Positions 17,611 through 56,420 of a DNA stretch of 64,000 bases are shown here, in pieces (the stretch's first letter is position 1; each line of letters starts with the position of its first letter). Under the pieces are notes generated by a model. It saw nothing but the letters and a program-made list of their open reading frames with translations. It did not search any database and was not told the origin of the DNA. The stretch covers positions 40,389 through 104,388 of the forward strand of contig CAYXVR010000013.1 in NCBI GenBank assembly GCA_964468635.1, written 5' to 3'. The stretch is from an uncultured Nannocystaceae bacterium. GTDB taxonomy: Bacteria; Myxococcota_A; Polyangia; Nannocystales; Nannocystaceae. The position numbers and the translations under genes are program-made.

Positions 17611-19470
17611 ATGCGTCGCTTCGCGATCGCGCTGGGCCTGTCGACCGCGTGCGGGCACCCCGGTCCGGCCGTGCCCGACGAGGCCCCGGTCGCCGAGCCC
17701 TCCGCGGCGGCGGCGCCCGGGCCCGCGCCGGCCGATGCACCGAGGCCGACCCCTGCGCTCGGTGAGCCCGTCGTGCTCGTGACCGATCCGGCCGTGCTCG
17801 CTCGCATCGAGGGTGCGGGGTGGACGTTCGCGGCGACGGCGTTCGACTCGAGCGCGAGCGACACCGCCGCGCTCGCGAAGGACTCGCACTGGCGCGCGAT
17901 CGTGAAGACGATCGCCGGCGACGTCGCGGCGGTGGGCGCCGGCGATGCGAAGGCGGGCGTGGGGCTGCGCTTCACACATCGATTGTTCGACGTGCGATGG
18001 CTCGAGTCGGAGCGCGCGTGGCTCGAGCTCGTCGGGGTCGTGAATCGGATCGATCGGCGCGTGTTCCATCCCGGCACGTGCGGTGAGACGCGGCTCGTCT
18101 ACCGGCTCGCGCACCGCGCGAAGCAGGGGCGCGAAGAGGTGCGATCGCGGCTGCCGATGACCGTGAACGTCGTGATGTGGCAGCCCGACGACGGGGCGGG
18201 TTGTCGCGACGTCGCGAAGCGCTGGCTCGTGCCGAAGAATGGCGACGTCGCGGAGCGGCTGCTCGCCGACGACGGTCCGCTCGCGGCTTCACGGCGCGGC
18301 GTCGCGGGGCTGAAGTCGATCGAGGTCGACGTGCAGACGTCGCGGTGGCCGGGCACGATCCGGCCGGATCTGGGCGGGCACGCGACGTATCTGCTGCGCG
18401 TGTTCCATCGCGATGGGAAGCGGACGTTCGCCGCGCCGCTCGAGAACACGCCGGACATCGCGCGGCTGCTCGCGTCGAAGCGCGATCGCGAGGCGTTGCT
18501 CGCGTGGATCCGCGAGCCGGCGACGCTCGACGCGATCGATCGCGGCACGGTGCTCATGCCGGATGCGTTCGCGGCGAAGGCCTCGCAGTCGTTCACGCCG
18601 CGGGGGCTCGCGCGGCTCGGCAATCGGCCGTTCTCGCAGCTGGTGTCGGCGCGCGAGCTCGGCGATCTCGCGCTCGAGTCGCGCACGCACGTGAAGTCGC
18701 CGGCGGCGCTCCTGCGCCGGCTCGACGAGCTCACGTGCGCCGGCTGTCACGAGACTCGCAGCATCGCGGGCTTCCATCTGCTCGGCGAAGAGGCGGCGGA
18801 TCTCGATCGCGTGGATGCGCTGAAGGTCGGCTCGTCGCCGCACCTGCTCGGCGATGTGGCCCGTCGCACCGCGTACGTCGCCGCACTCGCGCGCGGTGAG
18901 TCACCCGACGAGGCGCGGCCGCTGGCCGACAGCGATCCCACGCCGGGCGCGTACGGATCGCACTGCGGGCTCGGCGATCCGGGCTTCGCGGCGCTGCGGT
19001 GCAACGACGGCCTGGTGTGCACCGTCATCGACGACCCCGAGCTCGGCACGTGCCTGCCGTCCGCCCGCGGGGCCGGCGATCCCTGCGAGCTCGGAGCGAT
19101 GAAGACGTACGCCGATCCGAGGCGCGACCGGGTGAAGCACGACGACGTGCTCTCGTGCGAGCGCGACGGCGTGTGCGATCGCAACGGCGTCGGCTTCCCG
19201 GCAGGCATGTGCGTCGTCGCGTGCGCGAGCATGACGGACGACGAGGCGTGCGGCGGGATCCCCCAGCTCACCGGCTTCAACAACTGCCTCGCGGCCGGCC
19301 GTCGCTTCGCCGACTGCGTGCGGGAGAACGCGAGCCCCGCCGCGATGCGGTCGTGCGACGTGGATCATCCCTGCCGCGACGACTACATCTGCGCGCAGGC
19401 GGGCGATCGCGGCGTGTGCATGCCCCCGTACTTCCTCTACCAGCTGCGCGTGGACGGGCACCCCGGATAG
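17611..19470 (+). CDS. Lipoprotein with a single CXXCH haem-binding-type motif and a Cys-rich C-terminal region.
   Basis: The start is MRRFAIALGLSTACGH, a lipobox. It contains LTCAGCHETRSIAGFH (CXXCH). The C-terminal 130 aa hold about 16 Cys. The ORF-track entry 16708..19470 includes a spurious 5' extension. Confidence 0.55.
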   Translation: MRRFAIALGLSTACGHPGPAVPDEAPVAEPSAAAAPGPAPADAPRPTPALGEPVVLVTDPAVLARIEGAGWTFAATAFDSSASDTAALAKDSHWRAIVKTIAGDVAAVGAGDAKAGVGLRFTHRLFDVRWLESERAWLELVGVVNRIDRRVFHPGTCGETRLVYRLAHRAKQGREEVRSRLPMTVNVVMWQPDDGAGCRDVAKRWLVPKNGDVAERLLADDGPLAASRRGVAGLKSIEVDVQTSRWPGTIRPDLGGHATYLLRVFHRDGKRTFAAPLENTPDIARLLASKRDREALLAWIREPATLDAIDRGTVLMPDAFAAKASQSFTPRGLARLGNRPFSQLVSARELGDLALESRTHVKSPAALLRRLDELTCAGCHETRSIAGFHLLGEEAADLDRVDALKVGSSPHLLGDVARRTAYVAALARGESPDEARPLADSDPTPGAYGSHCGLGDPGFAALRCNDGLVCTVIDDPELGTCLPSARGAGDPCELGAMKTYADPRRDRVKHDDVLSCERDGVCDRNGVGFPAGMCVVACASMTDDEACGGIPQLTGFNNCLAAGRRFADCVRENASPAAMRSCDVDHPCRDDYICAQAGDRGVCMPPYFLYQLRVDGHPG

Positions 19471-19484
19471 CGTATTCTCCGCCC

Positions 19485-21206
19485 GTGGATCGGCAGCCGC
19501 CGCGCGCTTCCAGCAACGAGATCGACCTCTACGTGCGCACGTACTACTCGCTGTTGCGCAGCAGTGGCGACGTGCGGGTGCGCGCGTTCGAGGAGGCGCA
19601 CGCGTACAGCGACTCGAGCCTGCACTCGGGCGCGCGCGAGCCGTTGCCGGACGTCGCCGCGTTCGCCTATGCGGCGGCGCGATTGCCCGCGTGCATGCCC
19701 GACCTCGAGCGGCTGGTGATCGGGCAGAGCAACGAGCAGTTCGAGGCGCAGGGGCTCGCCGTGCGCTCATGGGATCCGGTCGTCACCCGCGGGCGTCGGC
19801 GACCGCTGCGGTGGGACGGGCGCGGCACGCTCGCGGTGTACGTGAGCAGCGCGTCGGACATCGACGACCTCGTGCCCATCGTCACTGCGTGGCAGATCGA
19901 GTGGAACAAGATGCACACGGCGCTGTCGCGCTCTCCCGAGCGCGAGCTGTTGCTCGGACCGGCGTCGGCCGACGCGCTCGCGATGGCGCTCGGCACCGCG
20001 CTCGGCATCTCCGCCGACGACATCGGCGTGCTCCGCGGGGCGTTCGCCGGCACCTTCGCGCGCGCGGTGAATCTACTGGCAGCGCGGCCCACCGATCTCA
20101 CGGTGCGACTGCTCGCGGGCACGCTGCTCGAGTACCGACGCGCGTCGCAGCGGTGGTGGAGCGGCATCGAGAGCGGCTACGCGCGCCCGAGCGAGCGCCC
20201 GCGTCCGGTGTACTTCGTGTCGTCGAACACGCACGCGATGCCCAACCTGCTCGCCGGATACGCGCGAGCCCATCGCGACGAGATGCTCGCGTTCATCCGC
20301 CAGCACGACGCCGAGGCGCTCGCCGACGACGTCGATCACGCGATCGAGCGCGGCGACGACGACGAGCTCGCGAACCTCTCCTACTACCTCTTGCGGCAGT
20401 CGCTACGCTTCGACCCCGACGGCACGCGGCTGAAGACGGTGCAGGCGTGGGACGAGGGCAGCGGTGTCACGACGCTGCGCGATCCGGGCCAGCTCGACGT
20501 CGCGGCGCAGCTCGTGGAGCTGCGGCGGCTGCAACCCGATCGGCTGGACCCGCGCGTGCGCGTGCCCGGGGTCGAGCGGCTCGCGGACTCCGACGCCGTG
20601 ATCATCAACATCGACTACCCGCTCGGCATGGCGGCGTACCACCACCTCACGCGCCTCGCCGAGGGCGTGGGCGAGATCCGCGGCGTGTACGTGATGGGCA
20701 AGGCCGCGACGCTGAACGGCCGCGTCGGCGACGTGATGGTGTCCACCGTGGGCTACGACGAGCACTCGCAGAACACGTACCTGTTCCGCAACTGCTTCGC
20801 GTCCGGCGACGTGCAGCCGTGGACGAAGGCGACCGTGCTCGACAACCAGAAGGCGCTCACGGTGCGCGGATCCTTCCTGCAGAACCGCGAGTACATGCAG
20901 GTGTTCTACCGCGAGGGCTACACCGTGCTCGAGATGGAGGCTGGCCCGTACCTGTCGGCGATCTACGAGCTCGTGCATCCCAAGCGCCATCCGCGGGACG
21001 AGATCGTGCACCTGTCGAACCTCGTGCCGTTCGACTTCGGGCTGCTCCACTACGCGTCGGACACGCCGTACTCGCGGCGCCAGACGCTCTTGTCGAAGAG
21101 CCTGTCGTACTTCGGCATGGACAGCACGTACGGGTGCGCAATCGCGATCGTGCGCCGCATCCTGTCCACCGAAGTCGCGCGGCTGTCGGCGCCCGTTGTA
21201 CCGTAG
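19485..21206 (+). CDS. Hypothetical protein with a C-terminal phosphorylase-superfamily-like (PNP/MTAN-type) fold signature.
   Basis: The frame is that of ORF 18999..21206. The first plausible start is a GTG 15 nt after the upstream stop, so the N-terminus is uncertain. The C-terminal segment AVIINIDYPLGMAAYHHLTRLAEGVGEIRGVYVMGKAATLNGRVGDVMVSTVGYDEHSQN resembles nucleoside-phosphorylase family cores. Confidence 0.45.
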   Translation: MDRQPPRASSNEIDLYVRTYYSLLRSSGDVRVRAFEEAHAYSDSSLHSGAREPLPDVAAFAYAAARLPACMPDLERLVIGQSNEQFEAQGLAVRSWDPVVTRGRRRPLRWDGRGTLAVYVSSASDIDDLVPIVTAWQIEWNKMHTALSRSPERELLLGPASADALAMALGTALGISADDIGVLRGAFAGTFARAVNLLAARPTDLTVRLLAGTLLEYRRASQRWWSGIESGYARPSERPRPVYFVSSNTHAMPNLLAGYARAHRDEMLAFIRQHDAEALADDVDHAIERGDDDELANLSYYLLRQSLRFDPDGTRLKTVQAWDEGSGVTTLRDPGQLDVAAQLVELRRLQPDRLDPRVRVPGVERLADSDAVIINIDYPLGMAAYHHLTRLAEGVGEIRGVYVMGKAATLNGRVGDVMVSTVGYDEHSQNTYLFRNCFASGDVQPWTKATVLDNQKALTVRGSFLQNREYMQVFYREGYTVLEMEAGPYLSAIYELVHPKRHPRDEIVHLSNLVPFDFGLLHYASDTPYSRRQTLLSKSLSYFGMDSTYGCAIAIVRRILSTEVARLSAPVVP

Positions 21207-21209
21207 GGC

Positions 21210-22607
21210 ATGCTCACTGCCCTGGGTCTCGTCGTGCTCGCCGCGCTGCCGGAGCAGTCGGTGGACGATCCGCAGTCGGTCACGGGTGGTGCCGACGCGA
21301 TGGAGTGCGCGTGGGTCGACACGGTCGCCGTCACCGGCGGTGGTGGCCTGTGCACCGGCGCGCTCGTGCATCCGCGCGTCGTCACGTATGCGGCGCACTG
21401 CGGCGACGGCGAGAAGGTGATTCGCTTCGGGCAGTCGGACAGCGGCGACGGGCTCGGGCAGACGGCCGCGACCTCGTTCTGTCGGATCAATCCCGAGTAC
21501 GTCGGCGTCTCCAACCAGGGCCAGGACTGGGCGTTCTGCGTGCTCGAGGAGCCGATCACGGAGATCCCGTTCACGCCGCCCTTGTACGGCTGCGAGCTCG
21601 ACGTGCTCGAGGCGGGGCTCGAGGTGTACATCGCGGGGTTCGGCGACGAGGTGGGTACCGGTGGTGCGGGCACGAAGCGGTGGGCGCAGACCACCGTGAT
21701 CTCGACGTTCGGCAACACGGCGACGATCGGCGGCGGCGGCGTGTCGACGTGCATGGGCGACTCGGGCGGCTCGGCGTTCGTGCTGATGGACGACGGCACG
21801 CTGCGTGCGATCTCGATGGTGTCCACCGGCACGGACTGCGGCAACGCGGGCGTGCACGCGCTCATGCATCCGGCGGTGCCGTGGATCGAGACGGAGGCGC
21901 AGATCGACATCACGCCGTGCCACGACGTCGACGGCACGTGGAATCCGACGTCGATGTGTACGGGCTTCTATGCCGGCAACGAGGTCGGGCACGGCACGTG
22001 GGAGGAGTGGTGTCCGGGCACGCCGATCGGGGGCGCGAGCGACACGTGCGGAGCGACGTTCGACGCCGAGGACGACGCCGATCCCCCGACGGTCGCGATC
22101 ACGTCGCCCGCCGACGGCGAGGAGATCGACGACGGATCGAACGTGACCATCGCGATCGATGCGGCCGATCCGGGATGGGGCGTGCGCCACGTGTGGATCG
22201 AGATCGACGGCATGGATCTCGGCGCGCGCGACGAGTACCCGCCGTACGAGTTTGCCGCGCTGCAGTTCCCTGACGGCATCTACGAGATCCGGGCGACGGC
22301 CGAGGACTGGGCGGGCAACGTCGCGATGTCGGAGACGATCACGATCGGCGTGGGCATGCCGGTGCCGAGCGACGAGGACACCGGCGATCCGGACGGCAGC
22401 ACGAGCGCGGACGACGGCGACACGACGAGCGCGACGGATCCGGACGACGACGACGACGACGAGAGCGACGACGACGACGGCGACAGCACGGGCCCGGACC
22501 AGACCGACGACGGTGGCGGCGGGGGGTGCACGTGCCGTGCGTCGGGCCCCGGCGCTGCGCCGTGGCTGCTGCTCCCCATCCTCTATAGAAGGATCCGGAG
22601 GCGCTGA
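21210..22607 (+). CDS. Trypsin-like (S1) serine protease with an Ig-like domain and a MYXO-CTERM sorting tail.
   Basis: The product has TYAAHCG (catalytic His) and CMGDSGGSAF (GDSGG catalytic Ser). The C-terminus GGGGGCTCRASGPGAAPWLLLPILYRRIRRR fits the MYXO-CTERM pattern of a Cys pair, a hydrophobic stretch and an Arg tail. Confidence 0.7.
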   Translation: MLTALGLVVLAALPEQSVDDPQSVTGGADAMECAWVDTVAVTGGGGLCTGALVHPRVVTYAAHCGDGEKVIRFGQSDSGDGLGQTAATSFCRINPEYVGVSNQGQDWAFCVLEEPITEIPFTPPLYGCELDVLEAGLEVYIAGFGDEVGTGGAGTKRWAQTTVISTFGNTATIGGGGVSTCMGDSGGSAFVLMDDGTLRAISMVSTGTDCGNAGVHALMHPAVPWIETEAQIDITPCHDVDGTWNPTSMCTGFYAGNEVGHGTWEEWCPGTPIGGASDTCGATFDAEDDADPPTVAITSPADGEEIDDGSNVTIAIDAADPGWGVRHVWIEIDGMDLGARDEYPPYEFAALQFPDGIYEIRATAEDWAGNVAMSETITIGVGMPVPSDEDTGDPDGSTSADDGDTTSATDPDDDDDDESDDDDGDSTGPDQTDDGGGGGCTCRASGPGAAPWLLLPILYRRIRRR

Positions 22608-23161
22608 TGCCGTTCATCGAGACGATCGCGCCCGAGCGCGCCGAGGGCTTGTTGAAGCGGATCTACGACGCGGCCATCCGCCGCGCCGGCAAGGTCTTCG
22701 CCGTGGTGCGGGTGCAGAGCCGCCAGCCCCGCGTGCTCGAGGCCTCGATGGAGCTCTACGTGCGAGCGATGCACGCGAAGGACGAGCCGCTGACGCGTGC
22801 GCAACGCGAGCTGCTCGCGACCTACGTGTCGATGATCAACGACTGCGAGTATTGACTGCGCGCGCACGCCGACGACCTCCGTGCCGAGGTCGCAAACCGC
22901 CCCGACGCCATCACCATCGCCGATACCCTCGAGCGCCGCGAAGTGCCGTCGCTTCCCCCGAACGACACGGCACTGCTCGCCTTCGCCGACAAGCTCACGC
23001 GCACGCCCTCGGCGATCCGCCAGCCCGACATCGACGCGCTGCGCGCCCACGGCTTCGACGACGCCGCGATCTCGCACGCGGTACAGGTGATCGCCCTCTT
23101 CGCCTACTACAACCGCATCGCCGACGGCCTCGGCATCCACACCCACGACGACGCAAAGTGA
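22607..23161 (+). CDS. AhpD-like / carboxymuconolactone-decarboxylase-family peroxidase-related protein interrupted by an in-frame TGA at 22853-22855. Either a selenoprotein candidate (CxxU) or a pseudogene.
   Basis: ORFs 22607..22855 and 22943..23161 are in the same frame. Translating through the TGA gives ...MINDCEY[TGA]LRAHADDLRAEVANRPDAITIADTLERREVPSLPPNDTALLAF..., which places the TGA at the second Cys of the AhpD catalytic CxxCxxxH motif. A 7-bp-stem hairpin lies at 22873-22892. Confidence 0.5.
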
Positions 23162-23212
23162 CGTCGGCCCACTTCTGGCGACTCGAGATGGATCGCTGCC
23201 ATCGCGCTTCCG

Positions 23213-24049
23213 TCAGCATTCGTCTTGCAGCGGGAGCAGTGGGTCGTCGGTGCGCGGACTCCTCGGCGAGCCGAGGGTGCTCCGATCGCGGTGATCGGTC
23301 TCTGCCGAATCAAGATGTCGGCGTGAGGTCGCAGAACCCGCGATCGGTCCGCGGTGCGGAGCCGCATCTCTCGCGGCTCGCTTGCGCGAGGCCTTCGTCG
23401 CAGGCCCATGCTTCCCCGGCACGGCGTCGACGTCGAGCAGGCCGAGGCGGCGCCAGCCCTCGCGCAGGAGCCACGATTGCGGTGGCGAGGTGCCGTAGTC
23501 GGCGAAGCGATGCTCCGTCGCGGGCGGCTCGCTCCAGCCGTCGAAGATCGCCGCAGTGCTGCGGGGATCGATCCAGCATCGGGGAAGCACCACGCCGCGC
23601 TGCGCCGCGTGGTGTCGCGCGTTCGACAGCACGTAGTGGAGGGCATTGCGCACCTCCGTCGGCGTCGTCAGCTCGCGCGCGTGATAGCGACCCGCGACCA
23701 CGGGGCCTCTCCGCCCGAAGCAGCCGTTGATCGACTTCGCGAAACGCGTGCAGAAGGTCTGCATCCCGAGCGCGAGGCCTTCGCGGCTGTCGCTCTCCAC
23801 CATCTGATGCATGTGCTCACGCTGCACGGAGTAGTGCACGAACCGAGTGGGCGTCCGCCCTCGCACGGCCGTGAACGTGCGCACGATGGCCGCCCACGCG
23901 GCGGGCTGCCGCAGGTCGGGAACATCGTCGCGCACCCGGATGGTGACGATCAGTGGGTTGTACGAACGCACGCGTGGTCGCACGGCGTGCGGCACCATCG
24001 GTCTCGCGCTCGCTCGCTTGCGCCCAGCACCCTTGCGCGCGCCACCCAC
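23213..24049 (-). CDS. IS200/IS605-like (Y1 HUH, RAYT-like) transposase.
   Basis: The HUH motif is EHMHQMV. The catalytic Tyr context is TEVRNALHYVLSNARHH. Size and composition fit Y1 transposases. Confidence 0.55.
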   Translation of the reverse strand: MGGARKGAGRKRASARPMVPHAVRPRVRSYNPLIVTIRVRDDVPDLRQPAAWAAIVRTFTAVRGRTPTRFVHYSVQREHMHQMVESDSREGLALGMQTFCTRFAKSINGCFGRRGPVVAGRYHARELTTPTEVRNALHYVLSNARHHAAQRGVVLPRCWIDPRSTAAIFDGWSEPPATEHRFADYGTSPPQSWLLREGWRRLGLLDVDAVPGKHGPATKASRKRAARDAAPHRGPIAGSATSRRHLDSAETDHRDRSTLGSPRSPRTDDPLLPLQDEC

Positions 24050-24224
24050 GTCGGCAACTCGAGCTCGAGCTGCTTTGCGATCTTCCTACGCTTCGATTCC
24101 ATCGCGCTCATCTACTGCATCGAAGGAAGACGTCAAGGATGAATCGAGTCGTCGTGCACTTTTTCTTCCTCTTCGATCCTCCGTCGCCGACACGAGACGT
24201 TCGATGTCTGCCGAATCAAGATGG
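23301..24224. mobile_element. Putative IS unit: the RAYT-like gene bounded by 17-bp direct repeats TCTGCCGAATCAAGATG.
   Basis: Identical 17-mers occur at 23301-23317 and 24208-24224. Both are followed by similar G/C-rich sequence (gtcggcg versus ggcgagc). The left copy lies inside the 3' end of the transposase ORF. Confidence 0.35.
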
Positions 24225-24280
24225 CGAGCAGTCTCTCGCGAGCGCGATGCCGCTGCGGCGAGAACACTCGTCGCGTCGAT

Positions 24281-25198
24281 TTAGATCGCGAGCAGCCTGC
24301 GCAGCGACGGTTCGTGCAGATCGGCTTCGCGTTCGCCCATCTCCACCGTCGCGTCGACGAGGTCCGGGCGCGTGTAGTCCCAGCGTTCGACTGGGACCGG
24401 GCGCGACGGCGCGACGTAGAGGCGCGCGCCGTGCTCGCCCAGCACGTGCGCGGGATAGGGGCGCGTCAGCAGCACGAGGTTCTTGCGCACGTCGGGCACC
24501 GACTCCGCCGCAGCGGCGGGCACGTTGTCGATCATGCCGCCGTCGAGCAGTCGATGGCCCCGAAAACGTCCGATCGGTGTGAACGGAGGCGTCGACGACG
24601 ATGCGATCACGAGGTCGGCGAGCTCGTCGGGTGTCTCGCACGCGCGCAGATCGAACAGGTGCGGCGAGAAGCCGAGGCGCTGGCCGAAGCTCGGATGCAC
24701 CATGTCGGGGCGCAGTCGCTTCTCGAGGTTGTACGCCGACAGGCCCATCAACGCGCCGAGCGGAGCCGGCACCGCGCGGGGAAAGAGCGCCGCGAGCACG
24801 AGCACGGGAAACGGCTGCGCGCGCAGGTTCTCGAGCCCACCTTCGGCCGCCGCACACAGGAGCGTGTCGCGATAGATCGGTCCGTGCGGCGCCGGGCTGC
24901 GCCCGCGCAACAGCCGGCTCCACTGCAGGTTGTTCGTGAGCCCGCCGCGACGCCGCGTCCAGAAGTGTCGCGTCTGCACCTCGCGACCCGACAACCACAG
25001 CACCGCGACGCATGCACCCGCGGAGCACGACGCGACGGCGGCGAGACGCGGAATCAGCCGCTCGCCCCACCGATGCAACAACCCGAGCTCGTAGAACGCC
25101 CGGTTGCCCCCGCCCGCGAGCGTGAGGCCGATGTTGCGCCGTAGGGCGAGGGCGTGTCGATCCACGCGGGCCAACGATGGACCCGCGCGCCGCCGCAC
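24281..25198 (-). CDS. Patatin-like phospholipase.
   Basis: LAGGGNRAFYELG is the GGGxR/K oxyanion motif. SCSAGA is a GxSxG-like nucleophile motif. DGGMIDNVP is the catalytic Asp DGG motif. Confidence 0.65.
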   Translation of the reverse strand: MRRRAGPSLARVDRHALALRRNIGLTLAGGGNRAFYELGLLHRWGERLIPRLAAVASCSAGACVAVLWLSGREVQTRHFWTRRRGGLTNNLQWSRLLRGRSPAPHGPIYRDTLLCAAAEGGLENLRAQPFPVLVLAALFPRAVPAPLGALMGLSAYNLEKRLRPDMVHPSFGQRLGFSPHLFDLRACETPDELADLVIASSSTPPFTPIGRFRGHRLLDGGMIDNVPAAAAESVPDVRKNLVLLTRPYPAHVLGEHGARLYVAPSRPVPVERWDYTRPDLVDATVEMGEREADLHEPSLRRLLAI

Positions 25199-25281
25199 TC
25201 AAGCGCGATCGTCACTCGCACACGGTGGCGAGCGCCGCCTCGCACACGCCGATCTGTACGTCGGCGACGAGGTCGATGCCC

Positions 25282-26148
25282 TCAGCCCTCGTCGTCGCAG
25301 GACCACCACAGCCAGGGCTCGCAGACGTCGCCTGGGCGAATGTCGTGCGTGCGGCCGCAGCGAGAGCTGGTGCACTCGTAGTCGTCGCCGCACGGGACCC
25401 CCTCGGCGAGCAACGCTGCGCACGTCGGACCGCCCACCGCGTCGAGATCGCAGAACGCATCCGGGCCGCAGTGCGCTTCGGAGCCCGCACACGGCTCGCC
25501 GATCTGCGGGCGAGGCCGACACGTGCCGAACGTGTCGTCCAGGACGTCGTCCGGCAGATACACGTCGTCGCAGTACGAATCGGGCCCGCACCGCGGCGGG
25601 TGGTCGCCCGCGCGACACTCGATGTCCGTGAACGATTCGCAGGGATCGATGCAGCGCGTGCGCTCCTCGCTGCACTTGTTGCCGAACGGGTCGTCACAGT
25701 CGTAGATCCGCGCCGTGTACGTCTGGCACAAGAGCCCCTGGGCGCAGTCGTCGTGGCCCGGCGGCCACCCCTCGCACGTCTCGCCCAGACCGCGCGTGCC
25801 GTAGAACGTCTTGCACGGGGGCTCGCATCGAGTCGGCGGTTCATGGCACTCGGCCTGACGCTCGAAGCACTCGGGATCCGCCCAGAGGCCGTCGGCGGCC
25901 CCGCTCTCGGCGGCGTTGAGGTAATCGATGTACTGCGACGGCCCGCACCGAGCGACGTCCGGCGCGGTCTGGGGCCGCGCGGGCGGAACACAGCACTGCT
26001 GTTCCGACTCGCAATGCTTGATCGCGAGCGCGACGAGGTCGATGGGCTCGCCATCCTCGGTCTGCAGGTCGCCGACGTTGCGCGATACCGCTTCGCATGC
26101 GGTGGTGAAGGTGAGGAGGAACAGCAGCGTGCTCGTGCGATCGGTCAT
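25282..26148 (-). CDS. Cys-rich secreted lipoprotein.
   Basis: The product starts MTDRTSTLLFLLTFTTACEAVS, a lipobox. It has about 38 Cys in 288 aa, with repeated CxxxC / CxDPC patterns (CEPPCKTF, CIDPCESF, CGDDYEC). It sits in the tail of the artefactual Arg-rich ORF 25282..27390. Confidence 0.55.
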   Translation of the reverse strand: MTDRTSTLLFLLTFTTACEAVSRNVGDLQTEDGEPIDLVALAIKHCESEQQCCVPPARPQTAPDVARCGPSQYIDYLNAAESGAADGLWADPECFERQAECHEPPTRCEPPCKTFYGTRGLGETCEGWPPGHDDCAQGLLCQTYTARIYDCDDPFGNKCSEERTRCIDPCESFTDIECRAGDHPPRCGPDSYCDDVYLPDDVLDDTFGTCRPRPQIGEPCAGSEAHCGPDAFCDLDAVGGPTCAALLAEGVPCGDDYECTSSRCGRTHDIRPGDVCEPWLWWSCDDEG

Positions 26149-26180
26149 CGATGCTCCTGCACACGTCGTGAGCGGATCCG

Positions 26181-27368
26181 TCACTCGACGGGGCGCTCGC
26201 ACGGATCGTCGACGCTGACGGCGACGTCGAGCGTGACGAGCACCGCAGCGGCCTTGCGCGCGCGCTCGATGCGGTGGGCATGGCAAGCCGCGTCGCGCTC
26301 GATGAGGAAGCGCTCGCGGTCGAGCGCGCCGCGGCCGAACCGAGCGGCGTAGTCGTCGACGAGCGCGAGGGCCTCGTGGGGTCGCTCCTCGACGAAGCGA
26401 CGCGCACGGCGGAGCAGATCGATCTGCGCCTCGGGATCGTCGCGCACCGTCGGCGGCGGAGCGCGGCGGACGGAGGGCTTCGCGGCGACGGCCGGCCCCG
26501 GCTCGGGCTCCACGATCTCGATCGCGTCGTCCTCCTCCGGCTCGATCGGCGTCGCCCTCGGTGTCGGCGTGTGGGGGCGCGCCGGCTCGCGGGGCGCGGC
26601 GGCGAACGCCGGACGGATCTCCGTCGGCGGCGGTACGGACGAGGGCGCGCTCACGACGACCCCCACCGCGACCGCGACGCCTCCGATCGCGCCCGCGATC
26701 GCGCCGAGCCCCACCGCCTTCGCGGTGTGCCCGAGCTGCACCGCGAGGATCGCCCACACACGCCGAGCGTTCGCGGCGCTCGGGCGCGCTTCGGCCTGCG
26801 CGCGCTGCAGGAACGCCTGCGTCGCCGCATCGTCGGAGGCGATCGCGACGAATCGCTCGCCGAAGCGCTTGCGTGCGAGCCGGAGGCGCGAGTACAGCGT
26901 GTTGATCGGCACGTCGACGTCGAGCGCCACCTCGCTCATCGAGAGCCCGAGCACCTCGACGAGCACGAACACCTCGCGCTGTTCCGCGGGCAGCGAGGCG
27001 AGAAACCCCGCGAGTGCGTGCCAGCCCTGCTTGCGCTCGAGCTCCTCGTCCGGCCGGCGCGGAGCGTCGGGCGCGACGATCTGCGCCGTCACGCGACTTG
27101 CCGACGCAGCCGATCGCCGATGGCTGAACGCGACGTTGCGCGCGACCCCGTCGATCCACGTCGCGAGCGGCACGTCGCTCGCGCGCTGCGCGATCCGGCG
27201 ATGGATCGCGAGGAACACCTCGTGCACGAGATCGTCGAGCTGACCCTCGTCCACGCCCCGCGCTCGCAGCACCCAGCGCACGCGAGCATGGTGGTCGCGG
27301 TAGATCCGTTCGAGGCCGCGGACGGAAGCGGGAGCGGACAGCGGCGGGCCCATCCGTACTCCTTGCAC
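26181..27368 (-). CDS. ECF sigma factor fused to a TM, anti-sigma-like C-terminal domain.
   Basis: Region 2 is LVHEVFLAIHRRIAQ...TWIDGVARNVAFSHRR. Region 4 is LPAEQREVFVLVEVLGLSMSEVALDVDVPINTLYSRLRLARKRF. A TM segment follows (AVGLGAIAGAIGGVAVAVGVVV), then a Pro/Ala-rich linker and a 100-aa C-terminal domain. The start may be the internal Met at 27353. Confidence 0.65.
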   Translation of the reverse strand: MQGVRMGPPLSAPASVRGLERIYRDHHARVRWVLRARGVDEGQLDDLVHEVFLAIHRRIAQRASDVPLATWIDGVARNVAFSHRRSAASASRVTAQIVAPDAPRRPDEELERKQGWHALAGFLASLPAEQREVFVLVEVLGLSMSEVALDVDVPINTLYSRLRLARKRFGERFVAIASDDAATQAFLQRAQAEARPSAANARRVWAILAVQLGHTAKAVGLGAIAGAIGGVAVAVGVVVSAPSSVPPPTEIRPAFAAAPREPARPHTPTPRATPIEPEEDDAIEIVEPEPGPAVAAKPSVRRAPPPTVRDDPEAQIDLLRRARRFVEERPHEALALVDDYAARFGRGALDRERFLIERDAACHAHRIERARKAAAVLVTLDVAVSVDDPCERPVE

Positions 27369-27414
27369 GGGCGACGCACCGATTCGTCACCCGAGCGGCG
27401 AAGAAATTACGGCG

Positions 27415-28371
27415 TCATCGCCCGGGCAGGCGAGAGGCCGCGCCCACGACGAAACGCAGGCCGACCACGGCCGGCGACCAGGACGCCGCGGGCTGTCCCG
27501 CGGTCTGCAGATGGAACGCCGGCCGGCGCAGTCCGACGAGCGTTTCGAGCCGCGTACGCACGACGAACCGCCGCCCGACCGGCGCGTCGAGCCCGACGCT
27601 CACGGGCAGGGATAGCATCCAGTCCCGCTGCACGTGCTCGACGATGCGACTGCCTTCGCCGGTCGCGACGACCGCGGATGCGTCGAGCCCCGTGCACACC
27701 GGAATCTCCACGGGCCCACCGCGCGGCGCGACGCAGAAGCGCAGGCCGCCGCTCGACGTCGACGCGCGGATGGCCGCGCCCTCGATCTCGCTGCGTGCAC
27801 GCGCGAACCAATGCGAGCCGATCGCCGCGATGCGCAATGGACCATACAGCCACGCGATCTCGGCCTCGATGCCCCCCGTGGTCGCGGGGGTGAGGCCGAC
27901 CGCGACACCGCCGTGCACGGCGAGCCCGAGCCGATGTCGCCACGCGCGACCGCGGGGCACGTCGGGCTCTGCCGAGGGCGTCGATGCACGTGGCACGGTC
28001 GCGACCGGCGAAGGTTCCGGCGGTGCCGCGGCGATCTCGGGCTCGCGCGTTTCGGCGGCCCCCATCGGATCGGCCGCGACCGCGACGATCAACGCGGCGG
28101 CGCGCGCGAGCGGAGCACACGCTGCCCCTTCGATCCTGCGCGTGCTCGCGTCGTCGGGCCCCTGCACCGCGATCTCGAGCGCCCAACCGCCGGAAATCGC
28201 GACGATCCGCCCCTGCGCATGCACGGGCCCTCGCACGCCGCCCGGCCGCACGAGCGCCGCGATGTCCTGCTGCATGACGTCCGCCGAGGCACAGGGCGCC
28301 TCCCACTCGAGCTCGATCCGCGACGACGGCTCGACCGTCACGACGAACGCGAGGATCTCCGCCAACCACAC
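27415..28371 (-). CDS. Hypothetical protein upstream in the same orientation as the sigma-fusion gene.
   Basis: A 318-aa ORF with ordinary, non-Arg-biased composition. Alternative frames over the same DNA are Arg-rich artefacts. No motif recognised. Confidence 0.4.
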   Translation of the reverse strand: MWLAEILAFVVTVEPSSRIELEWEAPCASADVMQQDIAALVRPGGVRGPVHAQGRIVAISGGWALEIAVQGPDDASTRRIEGAACAPLARAAALIVAVAADPMGAAETREPEIAAAPPEPSPVATVPRASTPSAEPDVPRGRAWRHRLGLAVHGGVAVGLTPATTGGIEAEIAWLYGPLRIAAIGSHWFARARSEIEGAAIRASTSSGGLRFCVAPRGGPVEIPVCTGLDASAVVATGEGSRIVEHVQRDWMLSLPVSVGLDAPVGRRFVVRTRLETLVGLRRPAFHLQTAGQPAASWSPAVVGLRFVVGAASRLPGR

Positions 28372-28411
28372 GATCGCGCAGTCTGACCGCGGACCGGCGT
28401 CGCGGCAACCT

Positions 28412-29911
28412 TCACTCGCGCGGCGCCATGATCGCGCGGCGGATCGCGGCCGACGGATGCGAGTCGTCGAGCGTGACGGACTCGCCGTCCACGACGACGC
28501 CGAGCTGTTGCATCGTCCGTCCGGTCTCGGGGAAGTCGATGCTCGCGAGGTGCCGCTTCGCGATCTCCGTGAAGATCGGCTTGCCGTACCACTCGTCGAG
28601 CTTCGCGAGCAGCGTCTTGGCCGGCCAGCGTTTCTTCGCGTCGCCGCAGCAGCGCCGGAGCTCGCGCATGGCGTCGTCGAAGCCCAGCTTGCCGGCCGAT
28701 TGCTGGCGCATCGTCACGTCGGCCTCGAACGCGATCGCGGCGCCGCCCCAGTACACGCGCTGGAACGCGAACGTGTCCATCATCTTCGCGCTCGACTCGG
28801 CGAGCGTGAGGCCGCGTCCGCCGCTGCGCCCGCGCTCGAACGCCTCGGCGAGCTCGCGCCACCCGTCTTTCTCGCTGCGATGGCCCATGCGCGTGCGCAT
28901 GATCTCCGTGTAGTAGGAGACGAACCCCTCGGCCATCCACGCCTCCTGCACGAACGGCATGCCGTGGTGCAGGAGCTCGTGCACCGTGGTCCATCCGCCC
29001 GGCAGCTCGCCGTCCTTCGCCTCGTTGCCGACGAGCAGGAGCACGCCCGAGCCTCCGCCGCGGGCGGCCATGCCGAAGTACACCGAGCCTCCGTTCACCG
29101 GCACGACCACCACCTGCAGTCGATCGCGAGGATAGTCGCCGTAGAGCATCGCGACGCTCGCCACCGCGTCGAGGATCCACGCGCGCACGCCCGCGGGGCT
29201 GCACTGCATCGGTGCGTCGAGTCGCGCGATCTCGATGTTCGAGCCGTGGGCCTCGAGCGCGTCGATCGTGAGCTCGCCGAAAGCCGTGTAGCCGCGCCAC
29301 CGGGCCGCGGTGTCGTCGAGCACGTACGACGAGGGCTCGCCACTGCGCTTCGGCCACGGCACCGACGCCTTCATGCCGTCGGGCAACACGAGCTCGAGCG
29401 TCGCCTCGGCGTCGGAGCTCGCCCCGACGGGCCAGAGCAGCCACAGGCCCTGCCGCACCGACACGCTCTTGCCGACCCAGCTGACCGTCTGCCGGCCGCT
29501 ACGCTCGGCCATGCGTCGGAAGTCGACACGATAGCCCACGCACTCGCCGGGCTCCAGCGCGGATGTGTCCCACCGACCGTCCTTGCCGGCGAGCACGACG
29601 TCGCGACCGACGATCCGCATGTCCTCGATGTGCTCTTCCGCGTCCGGTGTGCCGACCTTCACCGCGCGCGGCGTCGCGCCGTCGAAGCACATCTGCACGG
29701 CGACCGACTCGGCGCCCGGAGCCAACGTCGCGCGCATGCGCCACGACGTGAGCGCGACCGGGGACGAACGGACGGCCGCTGCGTTCGTCGGCGTCGCGGT
29801 CGGTGTGGGCGCGGCCGCGCGCTCGCACGCGGCGAGGAGCGCGAGCGCGACGACCATCGCGCGACGGAACCTCGTTCCATCGGGGGCAGGGATGGGCGCC
29901 TCTGGGGTCAT
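28412..29911 (-). CDS. M1-family-like (gluzincin) zinc metallopeptidase lipoprotein.
   Basis: It has HELLHH (HEXXH) followed by WMAEGFVSYY, the M1-type 'W-x-N-E-G-F-A-x-Y' third zinc-ligand Glu. The internal start MTPEAPIPAPDGTRFRRAMVVALALLAAC gives a signal peptide plus lipobox. The ORF-track start at 30199 is an upstream GTG extension. The start coordinate is accurate only to about 1 nt. Confidence 0.65.
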   Translation of the reverse strand: MTPEAPIPAPDGTRFRRAMVVALALLAACERAAAPTPTATPTNAAAVRSSPVALTSWRMRATLAPGAESVAVQMCFDGATPRAVKVGTPDAEEHIEDMRIVGRDVVLAGKDGRWDTSALEPGECVGYRVDFRRMAERSGRQTVSWVGKSVSVRQGLWLLWPVGASSDAEATLELVLPDGMKASVPWPKRSGEPSSYVLDDTAARWRGYTAFGELTIDALEAHGSNIEIARLDAPMQCSPAGVRAWILDAVASVAMLYGDYPRDRLQVVVVPVNGGSVYFGMAARGGGSGVLLLVGNEAKDGELPGGWTTVHELLHHGMPFVQEAWMAEGFVSYYTEIMRTRMGHRSEKDGWRELAEAFERGRSGGRGLTLAESSAKMMDTFAFQRVYWGGAAIAFEADVTMRQQSAGKLGFDDAMRELRRCCGDAKKRWPAKTLLAKLDEWYGKPIFTEIAKRHLASIDFPETGRTMQQLGVVVDGESVTLDDSHPSAAIRRAIMAPRE

Positions 29912-30149
29912 GCCGAGCGTGCCGAGATGGAACCATGTCATGCTCGCGCAGAGGCCGCGACAGCGCTGCCGCCGACGCGGTCCTGCGACTGGAATGCGTC
30001 CGATCGCGGTCCGGTTCGACGAACGAGAAGGGCAACGGCCGAGGTCGGTATCGACGTCGCCGGTGGATCTGTGAGAGCCTCCGATCCCCGTCGAGCGCGA
30101 GATGCCCCACCGGCTCTCGTGGCTGGAGCGCGATCGCAGGCGGACGACG

Positions 30150-30899
30150 ATGGACGATTTCCTGGCGGCTAGCCTGAGCTTCCCGACCGTGGTCTTCACG
30201 GTCCTCCTGCTGATCGCGCTGCTCTATTGGGTGCTCGTGATCGTCGGCGCGCTCGGGGTCGACATGCTCGACCTCGATCAAGGCCACGACGGTGCGGGTC
30301 ACGGGCCCGACGTCGGCGTCGATCATGGAGCCGATCACGGCGGCGATGGCGGAGACGGAGACGCCGGACACGACGGCGACGCCCACCACGGCCACAGCGG
30401 CGAAGGGCTCGGCCTGCTGCCCACGATGTTGTGGGTGCTCAAGCTGAACTCGGTGCCGATGACCATCGTGCTCACGATGGTCTTCTTCTGGTCGTGGCTC
30501 GCGTGCCACCTCGCGATGCACTACGTCGTCGGTTACGAGGCGCACTGGATCGCGGAGGTCGGACTCTTCGCGGGTGCGCTGCTGTTGTCGTTGCCACTGT
30601 CGTCGGTGACGGTCCGCCCGCTCGCGCCCCTGTTCCGCACGCACCCTGGTCAGCGTCGTGCCGCACTGCTCGGCAAGATCGTCGACGTCGACACGAGCTA
30701 CGTCGACGACAAGTTCGGCGTCGCGAAGGTCGACGACGGCGGTGCCGGTTTGCTCGTGCAGATCCGCTGCGATCCCCCGAATCCCCTCACCCGTGGTCAG
30801 CGCGCGCTCGTCGTCAGCTACGACGAAGCGCGCGAGGTCTACGAGGTCACCCCCATCGACGATTTGATCCCCTCGGACAAGGCCACCCGTCCGGACTAG
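30150..30899 (+). CDS. NfeD-like / YqiJ-family inner-membrane protein, the flotillin partner.
   Basis: The start is MDDFLAASLSFPTVVFTVLLLIALLYWVLVIVGALGV. A His/Asp/Gly-rich loop follows, then two more TM segments. The C-terminal domain is OB-fold-like (FGVAKVDDGGAGLLVQIRCD...ALVVSYDEAREVYEV). The gene ends 22 nt before the flotillin gene. Confidence 0.65.
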   Translation: MDDFLAASLSFPTVVFTVLLLIALLYWVLVIVGALGVDMLDLDQGHDGAGHGPDVGVDHGADHGGDGGDGDAGHDGDAHHGHSGEGLGLLPTMLWVLKLNSVPMTIVLTMVFFWSWLACHLAMHYVVGYEAHWIAEVGLFAGALLLSLPLSSVTVRPLAPLFRTHPGQRRAALLGKIVDVDTSYVDDKFGVAKVDDGGAGLLVQIRCDPPNPLTRGQRALVVSYDEAREVYEVTPIDDLIPSDKATRPD

Positions 30900-30920
30900 C
30901 GAGTCAGCTCAGAGGTCGAC

Positions 30921-33080
30921 ATGCCAGATTTCACGGTCATCACGATCATCGCCATCGCCGGAGCGGGCGTCGTCCTCCTGCTCGGCTCCCTCGTCCTGGT
31001 CATGAAGTTCTACCGGCAGGTGGACCAGGGCAAGGCGCTCATCATCAACAAGATGGGCAAGGAGCCCACCGTCACGTTCACCGGCGGTACGGTCGTGCCA
31101 GTGATCCATCGCGCCGAGGTCATGGACATCTCGGTGAAGAGCAACGAGATCTCGCGTACCGGCAAGGACGGCCTGATCTGCAAGGACAACATCCGTGCGG
31201 ACATCAAGGTCACGTTCTTCGTGCGCGTGAACAAGACGGTCGAGGACGTGCTCAAGGTCGCGCAGACGATCGGGTGCGCGCGCGCGTCGGATCCCGAGAC
31301 GCTCGAGACGCTCTTCTCCGCGAAGTTCTCCGAGGCGCTCAAGACCGTGGGCAAGCGCTTCGAGTTCGAGGAGCTCTACACGAAGCGCCACGAGTTCAAG
31401 GAGCAGATCCTCACCGTCATCGGGCAGGACCTGAACGGCTACGTGCTCGACGACTGCGCGATCGACTACCTCGAGCAGACGCCGCTCGCGTCGCTCGACC
31501 CGCACAACATCCTGGACGCGCAGGGTATCCGCAAGATCACGGACATCACGGCCGCGCAGAACATCGCCACCAACGACCTCCGCAAGGAGGAGGAGAAGGC
31601 GATCAAGAAGAAGAACACCGAGGCGGCCGAAGCGATCATGGAGCTCGATCGCCAGCAGGCCGACGCGCAGTTCAAGCAGATGCGCGAGATCGCGAGCGTG
31701 AAGGCGCGCGAGGAGGCCGAGGCGGCCCGCATCCAGGCCGAGGAGCGCAAGAAGTCCGAGAGCGCGCGCATCCTCGTGGACGAAGCGCTGGCCGTGGCCG
31801 AGGAGAACAAGCGCCGCCAGATCGAGGTGGCGGTGAAGAACCGCGAGCGCGTCGTGCTCGTCGAGCACGAGAAGGTCATCAAGGAGCAGCAGCTCGAGGC
31901 CATCGGCCGCGAGCGCGAGACCGAGCTCAAGCGCATCGAGAAGGAGAAGGCGCTCGAGGTCCAGAAGAAGGAGATCGCGGACGTCATCCGCGGCCGCGTG
32001 GCGGTCGACAAGACCGTCGCGGAAGAGGAGGAGCGCATCAAGGACCTCCGCACCGTCGCTGCGGCGAAGCGCGAGAAGGACGCGAAGGTCATCGGGGCCG
32101 AGGCCGAGGCCGAGCAGGAGCTCGTGAAGAGCATCAAGGCCGCGCAGGCGGCAGAAGAGGCCGCGCGCTTCGAGGCGAAGCAGAAGCTCGTGCTCGCCGA
32201 CGCCGATCTCGAAGCGTCGGATCGCATCGCCCGCGCGAAGATGCGGCTCGCCGAGGGCACGCAGGCCGAGCAGGCCGCGCCCGGCCTGGCGACGGTGAAG
32301 GTGAAGGAGGCCGACGCGGCCGCGGTGGAGAAGGTCGGCGCCGCCGAGGCGCGCGTGATGCTGCAGAAGATGGAGTCCGAGGCGAAGGGCCGCGAGACCC
32401 AGGGCCTCGCGCTCGTGAAGGTGAAGGAGGCCGAAGCGGCCGCGACCGAGAAGACCGGCGCCGCCGAGGCGAGCGCGCGTCGCGAGATGCTGCTCGCGGA
32501 GGCGACGGGCAAGGAAGCCGACGCCGGTGCCACCGAGAAGATGGCGCACGCGAAGGCGGCCGAGGTGCGCGAGGCGTTGCTGGCCGAGGCCACCGGCCTC
32601 GAGCAGAAGGCCCAGGCGATGAAGATGCTCGACCAGGAGACGCGGGCGCACGAGGAGTTCCGCCTCCGTCTCGATCGCCACATGCAGATCGCGCTGCAGG
32701 AGCTCGCGACCCGCAAGGACGTCGCCCATGCGCAGGCCGAGGTGCTCGCGCAGGCGATGGCGAACGCGAAGATCAACATCGTCGGCGGCGACGGCGAGTT
32801 CTTCCAGCGCTTCGTCCACGCGGTGTCGCTGGGCACTGCGCTCGACGGCGCGGTGGGGCAGAGCGAGACGGCGCAGAAGCTGCTGGGCGGCTACCTCGAT
32901 GGCAGTCAGAGCTTCACCGAGGACGTGAAGAGCGTGCTGCAGCGGCCCGCGATCGACAGCGAGGCGATGAAGAACCTCAGCATCACCGCGGTGCTCAGCC
33001 AGATGCTCTCCAAGATGGAGGACGGTCAGCGCACGAAGATGCAGAATCTGATCGTGAAGGCGAAGGAGCTGGGCCTGTAA
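30921..33080 (+). CDS. Flotillin (SPFH/band-7 domain protein, YqiK/FloT-like).
   Basis: An N-terminal TM (ITIIAIAGAGVVLLLGSLVLV) is followed by an SPFH domain. After that comes a long Glu/Ala/Lys-rich repeat region (EAEAARIQAEERKK..., AEAEAEQELVK...) and a conserved flotillin C-terminal segment. Confidence 0.8.
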   Translation: MPDFTVITIIAIAGAGVVLLLGSLVLVMKFYRQVDQGKALIINKMGKEPTVTFTGGTVVPVIHRAEVMDISVKSNEISRTGKDGLICKDNIRADIKVTFFVRVNKTVEDVLKVAQTIGCARASDPETLETLFSAKFSEALKTVGKRFEFEELYTKRHEFKEQILTVIGQDLNGYVLDDCAIDYLEQTPLASLDPHNILDAQGIRKITDITAAQNIATNDLRKEEEKAIKKKNTEAAEAIMELDRQQADAQFKQMREIASVKAREEAEAARIQAEERKKSESARILVDEALAVAEENKRRQIEVAVKNRERVVLVEHEKVIKEQQLEAIGRERETELKRIEKEKALEVQKKEIADVIRGRVAVDKTVAEEEERIKDLRTVAAAKREKDAKVIGAEAEAEQELVKSIKAAQAAEEAARFEAKQKLVLADADLEASDRIARAKMRLAEGTQAEQAAPGLATVKVKEADAAAVEKVGAAEARVMLQKMESEAKGRETQGLALVKVKEAEAAATEKTGAAEASARREMLLAEATGKEADAGATEKMAHAKAAEVREALLAEATGLEQKAQAMKMLDQETRAHEEFRLRLDRHMQIALQELATRKDVAHAQAEVLAQAMANAKINIVGGDGEFFQRFVHAVSLGTALDGAVGQSETAQKLLGGYLDGSQSFTEDVKSVLQRPAIDSEAMKNLSITAVLSQMLSKMEDGQRTKMQNLIVKAKELGL

Positions 33081-55807: not shown

Positions 55808-56100
55808 CCGGTTCCAGGGTCCTCGTCGTCGAGCAGGCCGTGCTTCTTCCAGCCGGTGCGGAGGAGCCACGTTCGGGGCGGTGAGGTGCCGAGATCGCGG
55901 GTGGGCGGATCGTTCGGTGGGCGGCGCCAGCCGGTGAAGCGTGGCGCGGGTCGCCGCGAGTGCTGCACGCGAGGTCGCGGCGCGACGCGTTTTCGTCCCG
56001 CGTTCGCGCGCTTGCCTCCCCATGTCCGGATGTCGAGCTCGAGCTGCTTGCTTCGCTTCGATCGCGCCACGGTCCACCTCGCGTGTGAAGGCGAGGACGT
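55804..56100 (-). pseudogene. Degenerate remnant of a second RAYT-like transposase copy.
   Basis: Translation contains WGGKRANAGRKRVAPRPRVQHSRRPAP and GTSPPRTWLLRTGWKKHGLLDDEDPG. These match the N-terminus and a C-proximal block of the 23213-24049 product with the HUH/Tyr core deleted. The upstream DNA block gagctcgagctgctt(g)c...cttcgat is also shared. Confidence 0.35.
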
Positions 56101-56125: not shown

Positions 56126-56420
56126 TTGTCCGCGAGGGACAGTGCGCTCGCCGCTTCACACTGTCCGCGCGGGACAGTGGGTGCGCTCGCGTGCTCGCTG
56201 CGTTCGTTCCGGGGAAGATCGCCGTTTCGAGATGAATCGGCGATCTTCCCGTGTTCGCTGCTCCGCCGCCCACGTGGGTGGGCCCGCATTCGACGGCGGT
56301 GTCGGGGCTCGCGAAGATCGCCGATTCGAGATGAATCGGCGATCTTCCTCTTCCCCACGAGTGCCGGAGCGGCCGGGGGCGGGCTGCACATCCGGCGCCT
56401 GTCCGCGAGAGACAGGCGCC
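56126..56420. repeat. Cluster of REP-like palindromes (CTGTCCGCG[A/C]G[G/A]GACAG family) and two copies of a 35-nt hairpin repeat.
   Basis: Hairpins lie at 56127-56141, 56159-56179 and 56394-56420 (10-bp stem GGCGCCTGTC / GACAGGCGCC). The 35-nt palindromic repeats GAAGATCGCCG(T/A)TTCGAGATGAATCGGCGATCTTC lie at 56214-56248 and 56313-56347. Confidence 0.45.

Follow-up and report, generated by a model that had tools for sequence, protein, structure and literature searches.

We analysed a stretch of 64,000 nucleotides, hereafter the window, from an uncultured Nannocystaceae bacterium (assembly GCA_964468635.1, contig CAYXVR010000013.1, positions 40,389 to 104,388 of the forward strand), in which an open reading frame (ORF) at 23213-24049 on the minus strand had initially been annotated as a RAYT/IS200-like transposase gene bounded by 17-bp direct repeats. 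We find that this 23-kb gene is a homologue of the Y1 HUH transposases of the RAYT/IS200 type and a member of a large clade typical of Myxococcota. Taken together, the evidence makes it likely that the locus is a RAYT-like Y1 HUH endonuclease/transposase gene, probably inactivated, that lies between two copies of a motif accompanying its clade. As judged from the comparison of homologous loci, the 17-mers are copies of this clade-associated repeat, and the gene itself is most likely a young pseudogene.

The ORF encodes a product of 278 amino acids, in which HMHQ occupies residues 79-82 (the HUH motif, 23804-23815, minus strand) and HYVLSN occupies residues 138-143 (the tyrosine motif, 23621-23638, minus strand). 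In an alignment of 42 family sequences, H79, H81, E85, Y139, N143 and H147 showed no variation, and the signature of the HUH Y1 superfamily, H79-M-H81 together with the single Y139, was present at the conserved positions. The AlphaFold2 model had a predicted local distance difference test (pLDDT) score of about 97 across residues 25-210, and when it was compared to the PDB using Foldseek, the first match was 4er8, the E. coli TnpAREP bound to a hairpin of a repetitive extragenic palindrome (REP) (E=1.4e-6, 177 columns). This was followed by the TnpA proteins of ISDra2, IS200 and IS608, and the top 19 PDB matches were all Y1 transposases; a profile search of the PDB also returned matches that were all Y1 transposases, and weak. 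The NCBIfam model REP_Tyr_transpos (NF047646, an equivalog) matched the window ORF with E=3.7e-7 and 30.1 bits, short of its curated cut-off of 80 bits, and the intact homologue P0002 likewise remained under this cut-off with 33.2 bits. In Pfam the window protein had no match at E<=1, Y1_Tnp (PF01797) included, while Y1_Tnp was matched by 29 of the 42 aligned relatives, at best with 7e-8. The invariant HUH and tyrosine residues, the top match to 4er8 and the E value of REP_Tyr_transpos thus confirm the initial annotation of the product as a Y1 HUH transposase of the RAYT/IS200 type.

A database search retrieved 332 relatives, mostly from metagenome bins of Myxococcota/Nannocystaceae; many of these are labelled RayT and some carry PF01797. 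A full HMMER scan returned 2146 representatives of 50%-identity clusters with end-to-end matches at E<=1e-30. Given this number of representatives and the existing RayT labels, the family is large and already loosely annotated. Compared to IS200 and TnpAREP, its members have two additions: the segment QLELxxPTWGGxRxGAGRKR at the N-terminus, which is basic and conserved, and an extension of about 70 amino acids at the C-terminus. It may be noted that many homologues end in two alanines directly before the stop codon, although the linker that precedes them varies; either a DNA element lying over the stop codon (GCxGCTTGA) or a C-terminal AA degradation signal could explain this ending.

The main reading frame of the 23-kb gene (23372-24049, minus strand) comprises the catalytic core and the C-terminal extension. 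The conserved N-terminal 19 codons (MESKRRKIAKQLELELPTW; 24046-24102, minus strand), which have 89% identity to residues 1-19 of P0002, are out of frame with the remainder of the gene. In all homologues the sequence M..KRxKIAKQLELELPTWGGARKGAGRKR is found in one frame, and they carry ...PTWGGARKGAGRK uninterrupted in a single frame. The displacement is due to one missing G in the run at 24045-24047, which has three Gs in the window and four in the relatives. A programmed frameshift at this site was considered and rejected, since on reading the sequence ACG TGG GTG we found no slippery heptamer or long homopolymer, which indicates a mutation. At the other end of the gene, where homologues terminate with ...KRAA*, the ancestral stop codon has been replaced by AGA (23369-23371), and the annotated frame reads through into a tail of 56 codons (23213-23371, minus strand). 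The GC content at third codon positions (GC3) is 0.64 in this tail compared to 0.86 in the core, GC3 periodicity is lost and the pLDDT falls below 50; the tail is probably non-coding and not ancestral coding sequence. Repair of both changes gives a protein of 244 amino acids, equal in length to P0002 and P0006.

Across the 64 kb of the window, two copies of the 17-mer TCTGCCGAATCAAGATG and no more were found, one at 23301-23317 and the other at 24207-24223. In 100 dinucleotide-preserving shuffles it had zero occurrences, even at 2 mismatches. The two identical copies described in the initial annotation are therefore real and exact, but the right one is not at 24208-24224 and the start-to-start spacing is 906 bp, not 907 bp. 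In the sense of the gene, both copies read CATCTTGATTCGGCAGA. Read on the opposite strand, the 17-mers correspond to the core of a motif of 16-20 nt, CTTGAWTCGGCAGAsa. The upstream copy of this motif (CATCTTGATTCGGCAGACA in gene sense; 24205-24223, minus strand; nhmmer E=1.2e-6) includes the right 17-mer, with about 100 nt between it and the start codon. The downstream copy (CATCTTGATTCGGCAGAGA in gene sense; 23299-23317, minus strand; E=2.3e-6) includes the left 17-mer, lies 52 nt past the ancestral stop and is followed by two small hairpins. The 17-mers do bracket the gene, with the left one inside the annotated ORF as had been described, but it falls only in the 56-codon tail that follows the ancestral stop.

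The association between motif and gene was examined in contigs whose homologues are at least 55% identical to the window ORF at the amino acid level, and in one further contig with a homologue at 36%. Among sequenced homologues, the motif adjoins the gene, in either orientation, in all those with 55% identity or more and in the one at 36%. A copy upstream in the same sense is accompanied by an inverted copy downstream in L005 (P0004, 76-78%), and a downstream copy in the same sense is found in L006 (P0006, 75%). The motif is upstream and inverted both in L127/128 (P0011, 67%) and in L032 (36%). In L129/130 (P0024, 58-60%) an upstream copy in the same sense is joined by two more in the next two intergenic gaps, giving three copies within 2.2 kb, and in L131/132 (P0039, 55-56%) a degenerate copy overlaps the stop codon, seen in L131 at 10711-10725 as ACT TGA TTCGGCGCA. 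The upstream motif lies 77-141 nt before the start of the homologues in L005, L127, L129 and L032. The motif was absent from L002, L003 and L004, which carry distant homologues with 43-47% identity to P0002. Two of these contigs, L002 (85-102) and L003 (9960-9975), have GCTCAATCAAGATG in common, the ATG of which is the start codon; it holds AATCAAGATG, a part of the 17-mer, in opposite relation to the gene.

A scan of metagenomes with the 16-mer CTTGAWTCGGCAGASA, for which the figures cover the matches listed, showed that the consensus extends past the pattern searched: among the unique instances listed at loci with a GC content of at least 0.6, gene-flanking copies included, a T follows GAsA in 23 of 41. 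Copies that stand apart from the gene were found on high-GC metagenome contigs, at positions where GC3 periodicity drops and hence in intergenic DNA. L009 and L107 each carry two dispersed copies, while L030 carries four in tandem with a GC-rich palindrome after each, and no relative of the protein is encoded on these three or on the other gene-free contigs with the motif. A scan of genome contigs yielded three distant relatives only, nothing was found among viral contigs, and a literature search with the motif sequence returned no match. Since the motif is present at unrelated loci, in both orientations and also in the absence of the gene, the 17-mers are neither a target duplication nor the fixed ends of an element. 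The initial annotation of a 0.9-kb mobile unit bounded by 17-bp direct repeats thus has to be corrected, as these are copies of a family-associated motif whose orientation varies between homologous loci.

Separately, two metagenome contigs with a GC content of about 0.55, L035 (6704-7677) and L098 (11405-11601), were seen to contain a 71-nt unit repeated in tandem at least 14 times, with a hypervariable dinucleotide after its CTTGATTCGGCAGA. This period is not divisible by 3, the unit has no match in Rfam, and its likeness to the myxobacterial motif may be due to chance.

The closest patatin orthologue, P0123 (90% amino acid identity), is encoded on contig L133, which aligns with the window at 18757-22592 (84% identity), 24281-25204 (86%) and 28414-31948 (80%). 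The trypsin-like and patatin genes adjoin directly in this contig. A segment of about 1.7 kb in the window (22593-24270, the right border being approximate), which contains an AhpD-like gene, the RAYT-like gene and both motif copies, is missing there, and L133 has no RAYT, no AhpD-like gene and no motif. The borders of this segment differ from the positions of the 17-mers, and no repeats were found at them. Homology between the 32-nt spacer of L133 and the 3′ region of the window patatin gene was tried and rejected as not significant, 675 of 1000 shuffles scoring equally. Elsewhere, the homologues have different neighbours in every contig examined, and none of these contigs has an AhpD-like gene beside the homologue; the AhpD-like gene as a passenger of the transposase is not supported. 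In the initial annotation, single-copy orthologues in fixed synteny, along with a 17-mer confined to its two places, were to have pointed to a domesticated gene. Such synteny is not seen, as L133 lacks the segment and the neighbours vary across the homologue contigs.

These data allow the alternatives to be weighed. An insertion sequence of the IS200/IS605 type, about 0.9 kb long and moving as a unit with its ends marked by the 17-mers, would account for the direct arrangement of the two copies, reminiscent of the LE/RE hairpins of IS200/IS605; however, the orientation of the motif is not conserved, being inverted downstream in L005 and inverted upstream in L127 and L032, the motif also occurs gene-free and in tandem arrays, and the ends have no significant hairpins. 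The unit has much the same size at two loci, about 925 bp in the window and about 915 bp in L005, and the gene is missing from the equivalent site in L133 and has varied neighbours in its homologues, as expected of a mobile unit, but the borders of the difference with L133 (22593 and about 24270) are off the 17-mers and enclose an unrelated gene as well. The motif also contains TTGAT, the target sequence of ISDra2, whereas the window has no second identical copy of the unit and the gene is frameshifted. On balance, we regard an insertion sequence of this kind as unlikely. Nor is it credible, beyond a very small chance, that the 17-mers are a target-site duplication produced when the gene inserted. 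A transposase-like gene with an identical direct repeat on either side would suit this explanation, but the motif flanks homologues at unrelated loci and in unrelated organisms, in both orientations, and not a single copy of the 17-mer is present at the empty site of L133; in addition, Y1 HUH transposases of IS200/IS605 are not known to make target duplications. Conservation of the motif at unrelated loci and its lack at the empty site led us to reject this explanation.

A different possibility is that the motif is bound by a regulatory protein, either as an operator of the gene or as a site of a host regulon, and is not a substrate of the enzyme. It is linear and non-palindromic, and it contains two GAWYCG-like half-sites about 11 bp apart, a spacing visible in the motif instances that would suit a protein on one face of double-stranded DNA. 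At five loci it precedes the start codon by a distance that varies little (77-141 nt), and it lies upstream of a conserved promoter-like element. However, copies are also located downstream of the gene and in both orientations, the four-copy tandem array in L030 adjoins no such gene, and in L129 three copies occupy successive intergenic gaps. The tandem array and the copies in successive gaps form a pattern typical of spreading repeats, not of an operator, and we consider a regulatory site improbable.

We therefore return to an inactivated RAYT-like gene between two copies of its clade motif. By analogy with TnpAREP and IS200/IS605 TnpA, the intact enzyme would hold a divalent metal through H79 and H81 and would cut single-stranded DNA with Tyr139, leaving a 5′-phosphotyrosine link. 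The co-occurrence of the motif with the clade suggests that the motif may be the DNA on which the enzyme acts, in the role that REPs have for classical RAYTs. Transcription would start at a conserved promoter-like element before the ATG and would give a leaderless transcript. The decay of the 23-kb gene would have involved both the missing G, splitting off the first 19 codons, and the change of the stop codon to AGA. The 56-kb locus, described below, would be a second and older relic, with its core deleted in frame and its own palindromic REP-like cluster kept. The 23-kb gene is not a fixed part of the chromosome: in the nearest available relative, the carrying segment is missing. A more specific proposal, which we put forward tentatively and think rather doubtful as a whole, is that CTTGAWTCGGCAGAsa(t)YCG is a new non-palindromic RAYT-associated repeat, a linear site resembling a much extended GTAG head, and that it has been spread through intergenic DNA without a REP hairpin by a Myxococcota-specific Y1 clade with extra N- and C-terminal segments.

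Several observations weigh against the main interpretation, an inactivated RAYT-like gene between copies of its clade motif. The motif is non-palindromic, only two copies are found in the 64-kb window, abundance across the genome being the hallmark of REPs, and the flanks of these two copies fold no more stably than shuffles (z = -1.8 and +0.6). Over 44 instances, hairpins were no more frequent downstream of the motif than upstream of it (p=0.6); with these results, the motif plus an adjacent hairpin was rejected as a REP. All biochemically studied Y1 transposases that we know of require a hairpin, and the motif as a substrate is therefore unproven. Among the matches listed, the metagenome scan gave mostly chance matches, at all GC contents. 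With regard to inactivation, the Logan contig L001, which is 100% identical and includes the frameshift, was possibly built from the same reads as the assembly, and the gene could be expressed from an internal GTG or ATG with all catalytic residues intact. Finally, the difference at about 22593-24270, for which there is one comparator, may be an insertion in the window or a deletion in L133.

A second RAYT-like locus is present near 56 kb, where an intact mini-ORF of 88 codons (55807-56070, or 55804-56070 with the stop end; minus strand) contains only the N-terminal (QLELDIRTWGGKRANAGRKR...) and C-terminal (FTGW...TSPPRTWLLRTGWKKHGLLD) blocks of the family, as the initial annotation had described. 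Its match to the family N-terminus had an hhalign E value of 2.8e-24. The sole relatives in the database, P0122 (an N-terminal fragment, 84%) and P0121 (a C-terminal fragment, 80%), come from other organisms and overlap to form a composite of a normal full-length protein. Compared to this composite, the mini-ORF retains residues 1-44 and 179-224, and residues from about 45 to 178 are missing, in frame. To P0002, which is intact and closely homologous to the 23-kb copy, its amino acid identity is 49-55%; given the 80-84% to P0121 and P0122, the mini-ORF therefore represents a separate, diverged paralogue, and on this sequence comparison we regard it as the relic of a different paralogue that has lost its catalytic core in frame. 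An internal deletion, as had been proposed, was thus found, but in a diverged paralogue and not in a copy of the same element. Both RAYT-like loci in the 64 kb are defective, and they are diverged from each other.

The REP-like cluster that had been reported beside this copy is also real and lies upstream of the mini-ORF, where it consists of two kinds of elements, neither assigned to a strand. The type B palindromes comprise a near-perfect one of 37 nt, GGAAGATCGCCGtTTC-GAGAT-GAATCGGCGATCTTCC, at 56213-56249 (z = -6.45; an equally good fold in 0 of 200 shuffles) and a second copy, also of 37 nt, at 56312-56348 (z = -4.63). Type A hairpins of 17 nt, with the consensus CTGTCCGCGmGGGACAG (at most 1 mismatch), are located at 56126-56142, 56161-56177 and 56399-56415. 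Neither type was found elsewhere in the window. The palindromes differ from the 17-mer motif and have no consistent GTAG head, and Rfam gave sub-threshold noise only at 55.7-56.5 kb. One palindrome arm (56231-56249, TGAATCGGC-GATC) agrees, save for a 3-nt gap, with the consensus form that the 23-kb motif has in the family, TGAATCGGCAGAGATC, the 23-kb copies in the window (24205-24223) reading TGATTCGGCAGA... compared to this consensus form; from this likeness, the 56-kb palindrome and the 23-kb motif may have a common ancestry. At the junction of the mini-ORF with an arginase-family gene (55804-55807), a TTAG tetranucleotide joins the convergent genes at overlapping stops, TAG on one strand and TAA on the other, and the same overlap is seen at the patatin/trypsin-like junction of L133 (3918-3921 of its reverse complement, L133rc).

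The locus can be compared with the known systems. With RAYT/TnpAREP (E. coli YafM, 4er8), which gave the best structural match, it shares the Y1 HUH fold with one catalytic tyrosine, a C-terminal extension past the IS200 core, a low copy number, short repeats that flank the gene and recur in intergenic DNA elsewhere, and, at 56 kb, a relic that adjoins true palindromic repeats. On the other hand, it scores 30 bits against the NCBIfam cut-off of 80 bits, and its host belongs to the Myxococcota, unlike those of classical RAYTs, which are Gammaproteobacteria. RAYTs as defined by Nunvar 2010 are flanked by REPs that are inverted, palindromic and headed by GTAG (PMC2817692), whereas the window copies are direct and the L005 pair is inverted, so that the arrangement varies within the clade, and the flanking 17-mers have neither a palindrome nor a GT(A/G)G (or CGTC) head. 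Bertels 2017 lists a single copy, vertical inheritance and abundant flanking 16-mers among RAYT traits (PMC5581495); here, two diverged and defective loci are found within 64 kb, L133 is without the locus and the neighbours vary, which differs from a single copy in stable synteny. TnpAREP recognises a hairpin together with GTAG, to which it binds base-specifically, and its C-terminal tail is about 25 amino acids long (Messing 2012, PMC3479197), in contrast to the extension of about 70 amino acids and the basic N-terminal segment in the present family.

The TnpA proteins of IS200/IS605 (IS608, ISDra2, IS200) have the HUH and tyrosine chemistry in common with the window protein, with a core match of about 106 columns, and the direct flanking copies in the window resemble LE/RE. 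Nevertheless, subterminal hairpins were tested and none was significant, the flanking motif changes orientation from locus to locus, the protein carries additional segments at both its N- and its C-terminus, tnpB is absent, and multi-copy identical elements were not found, with no second copy in the 64-kb window. Similarities to REP/BIME/REPIN elements are seen in the strong palindromes at 56 kb, which form a tight intergenic array beside a RAYT-type gene, and in the 17-mer motif, which is intergenic and, in L030, tandem. Unlike those elements, however, the motif is linear, the elements of the 56-kb cluster are confined to one spot in 64 kb, and the doublet architecture of a REPIN is not demonstrable. 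The locus works like a RAYT-type system and is best filed as a RAYT-like variant, not as a canonical member.

RAYTs and their REP partners have been studied mostly in Gammaproteobacteria, and there the partner is a DNA hairpin headed by GTAG. The present data add a large myxobacterial clade of related enzymes whose conserved partner sequence appears to be linear, as well as a window in which two stages of decay can be seen, a fresh frameshift with a lost stop codon and a core deletion. If the motif were indeed the substrate, it would widen the picture of how Y1 enzymes choose their DNA and would offer a handle on the dynamics of repeats in very large, GC-rich genomes. The finding is real and largely ordinary, the linear non-palindromic partner motif being its one mildly novel element. 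The chief use of the locus is the correction of its annotation as a pseudogene with a mis-extended ORF and with repeats other than a target duplication.

Upstream of the gene, a promoter-like arrangement, TTGACG-N16-TAGATG, was recognised by reading the sequence at 24109-24136 (minus strand), with an A-tract ahead of it. Between the end of its -10 element and the ATG there are 6-8 nt (6 nt in the window), and the arrangement is common to the window, L005, L006 and L127, which suggests a leaderless mRNA from this putative promoter; a scan with the strict sigma-70 consensus did not call it. A terminator-like hairpin, GCGAG-agactg-CTCGC (24224-24239, minus strand), is located about 40 nt past the stop of the patatin gene and adjoins the upstream motif on its 5′ side. 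The 91 nt around it fold no better than shuffled sequence, and Rfam returned nothing at 22.5-25 kb.

The AhpD-like gene (22607-23161, plus strand) encodes a "peroxidase-related enzyme" (TIGR01926, 124 bits, exceeding the cut-off) and also matches the AhpD-related "(seleno)protein" models of NCBIfam, a family that includes selenoproteins. An in-frame TGA at 22853-22855 falls exactly at the second cysteine of its CxxC (..NDCEY-TGA-LRAH..), and the frame runs on to 23161. Since the TGA occupies this cysteine position in a family containing selenoproteins, the gene is no evidence of poor assembly; it probably encodes a selenocysteine (CxxU) protein, and the hairpin GACCTC-cgtgcc-GAGGTC, about 25 nt downstream, could be the selenocysteine insertion sequence (SECIS) element. 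A further segment of the window, about 3.2 kb long (25205-28413), is likewise missing from L133; it has neither motif copies nor repeats at its borders and contains a Cys-rich lipoprotein-like ORF at 25282-27390 (minus strand).

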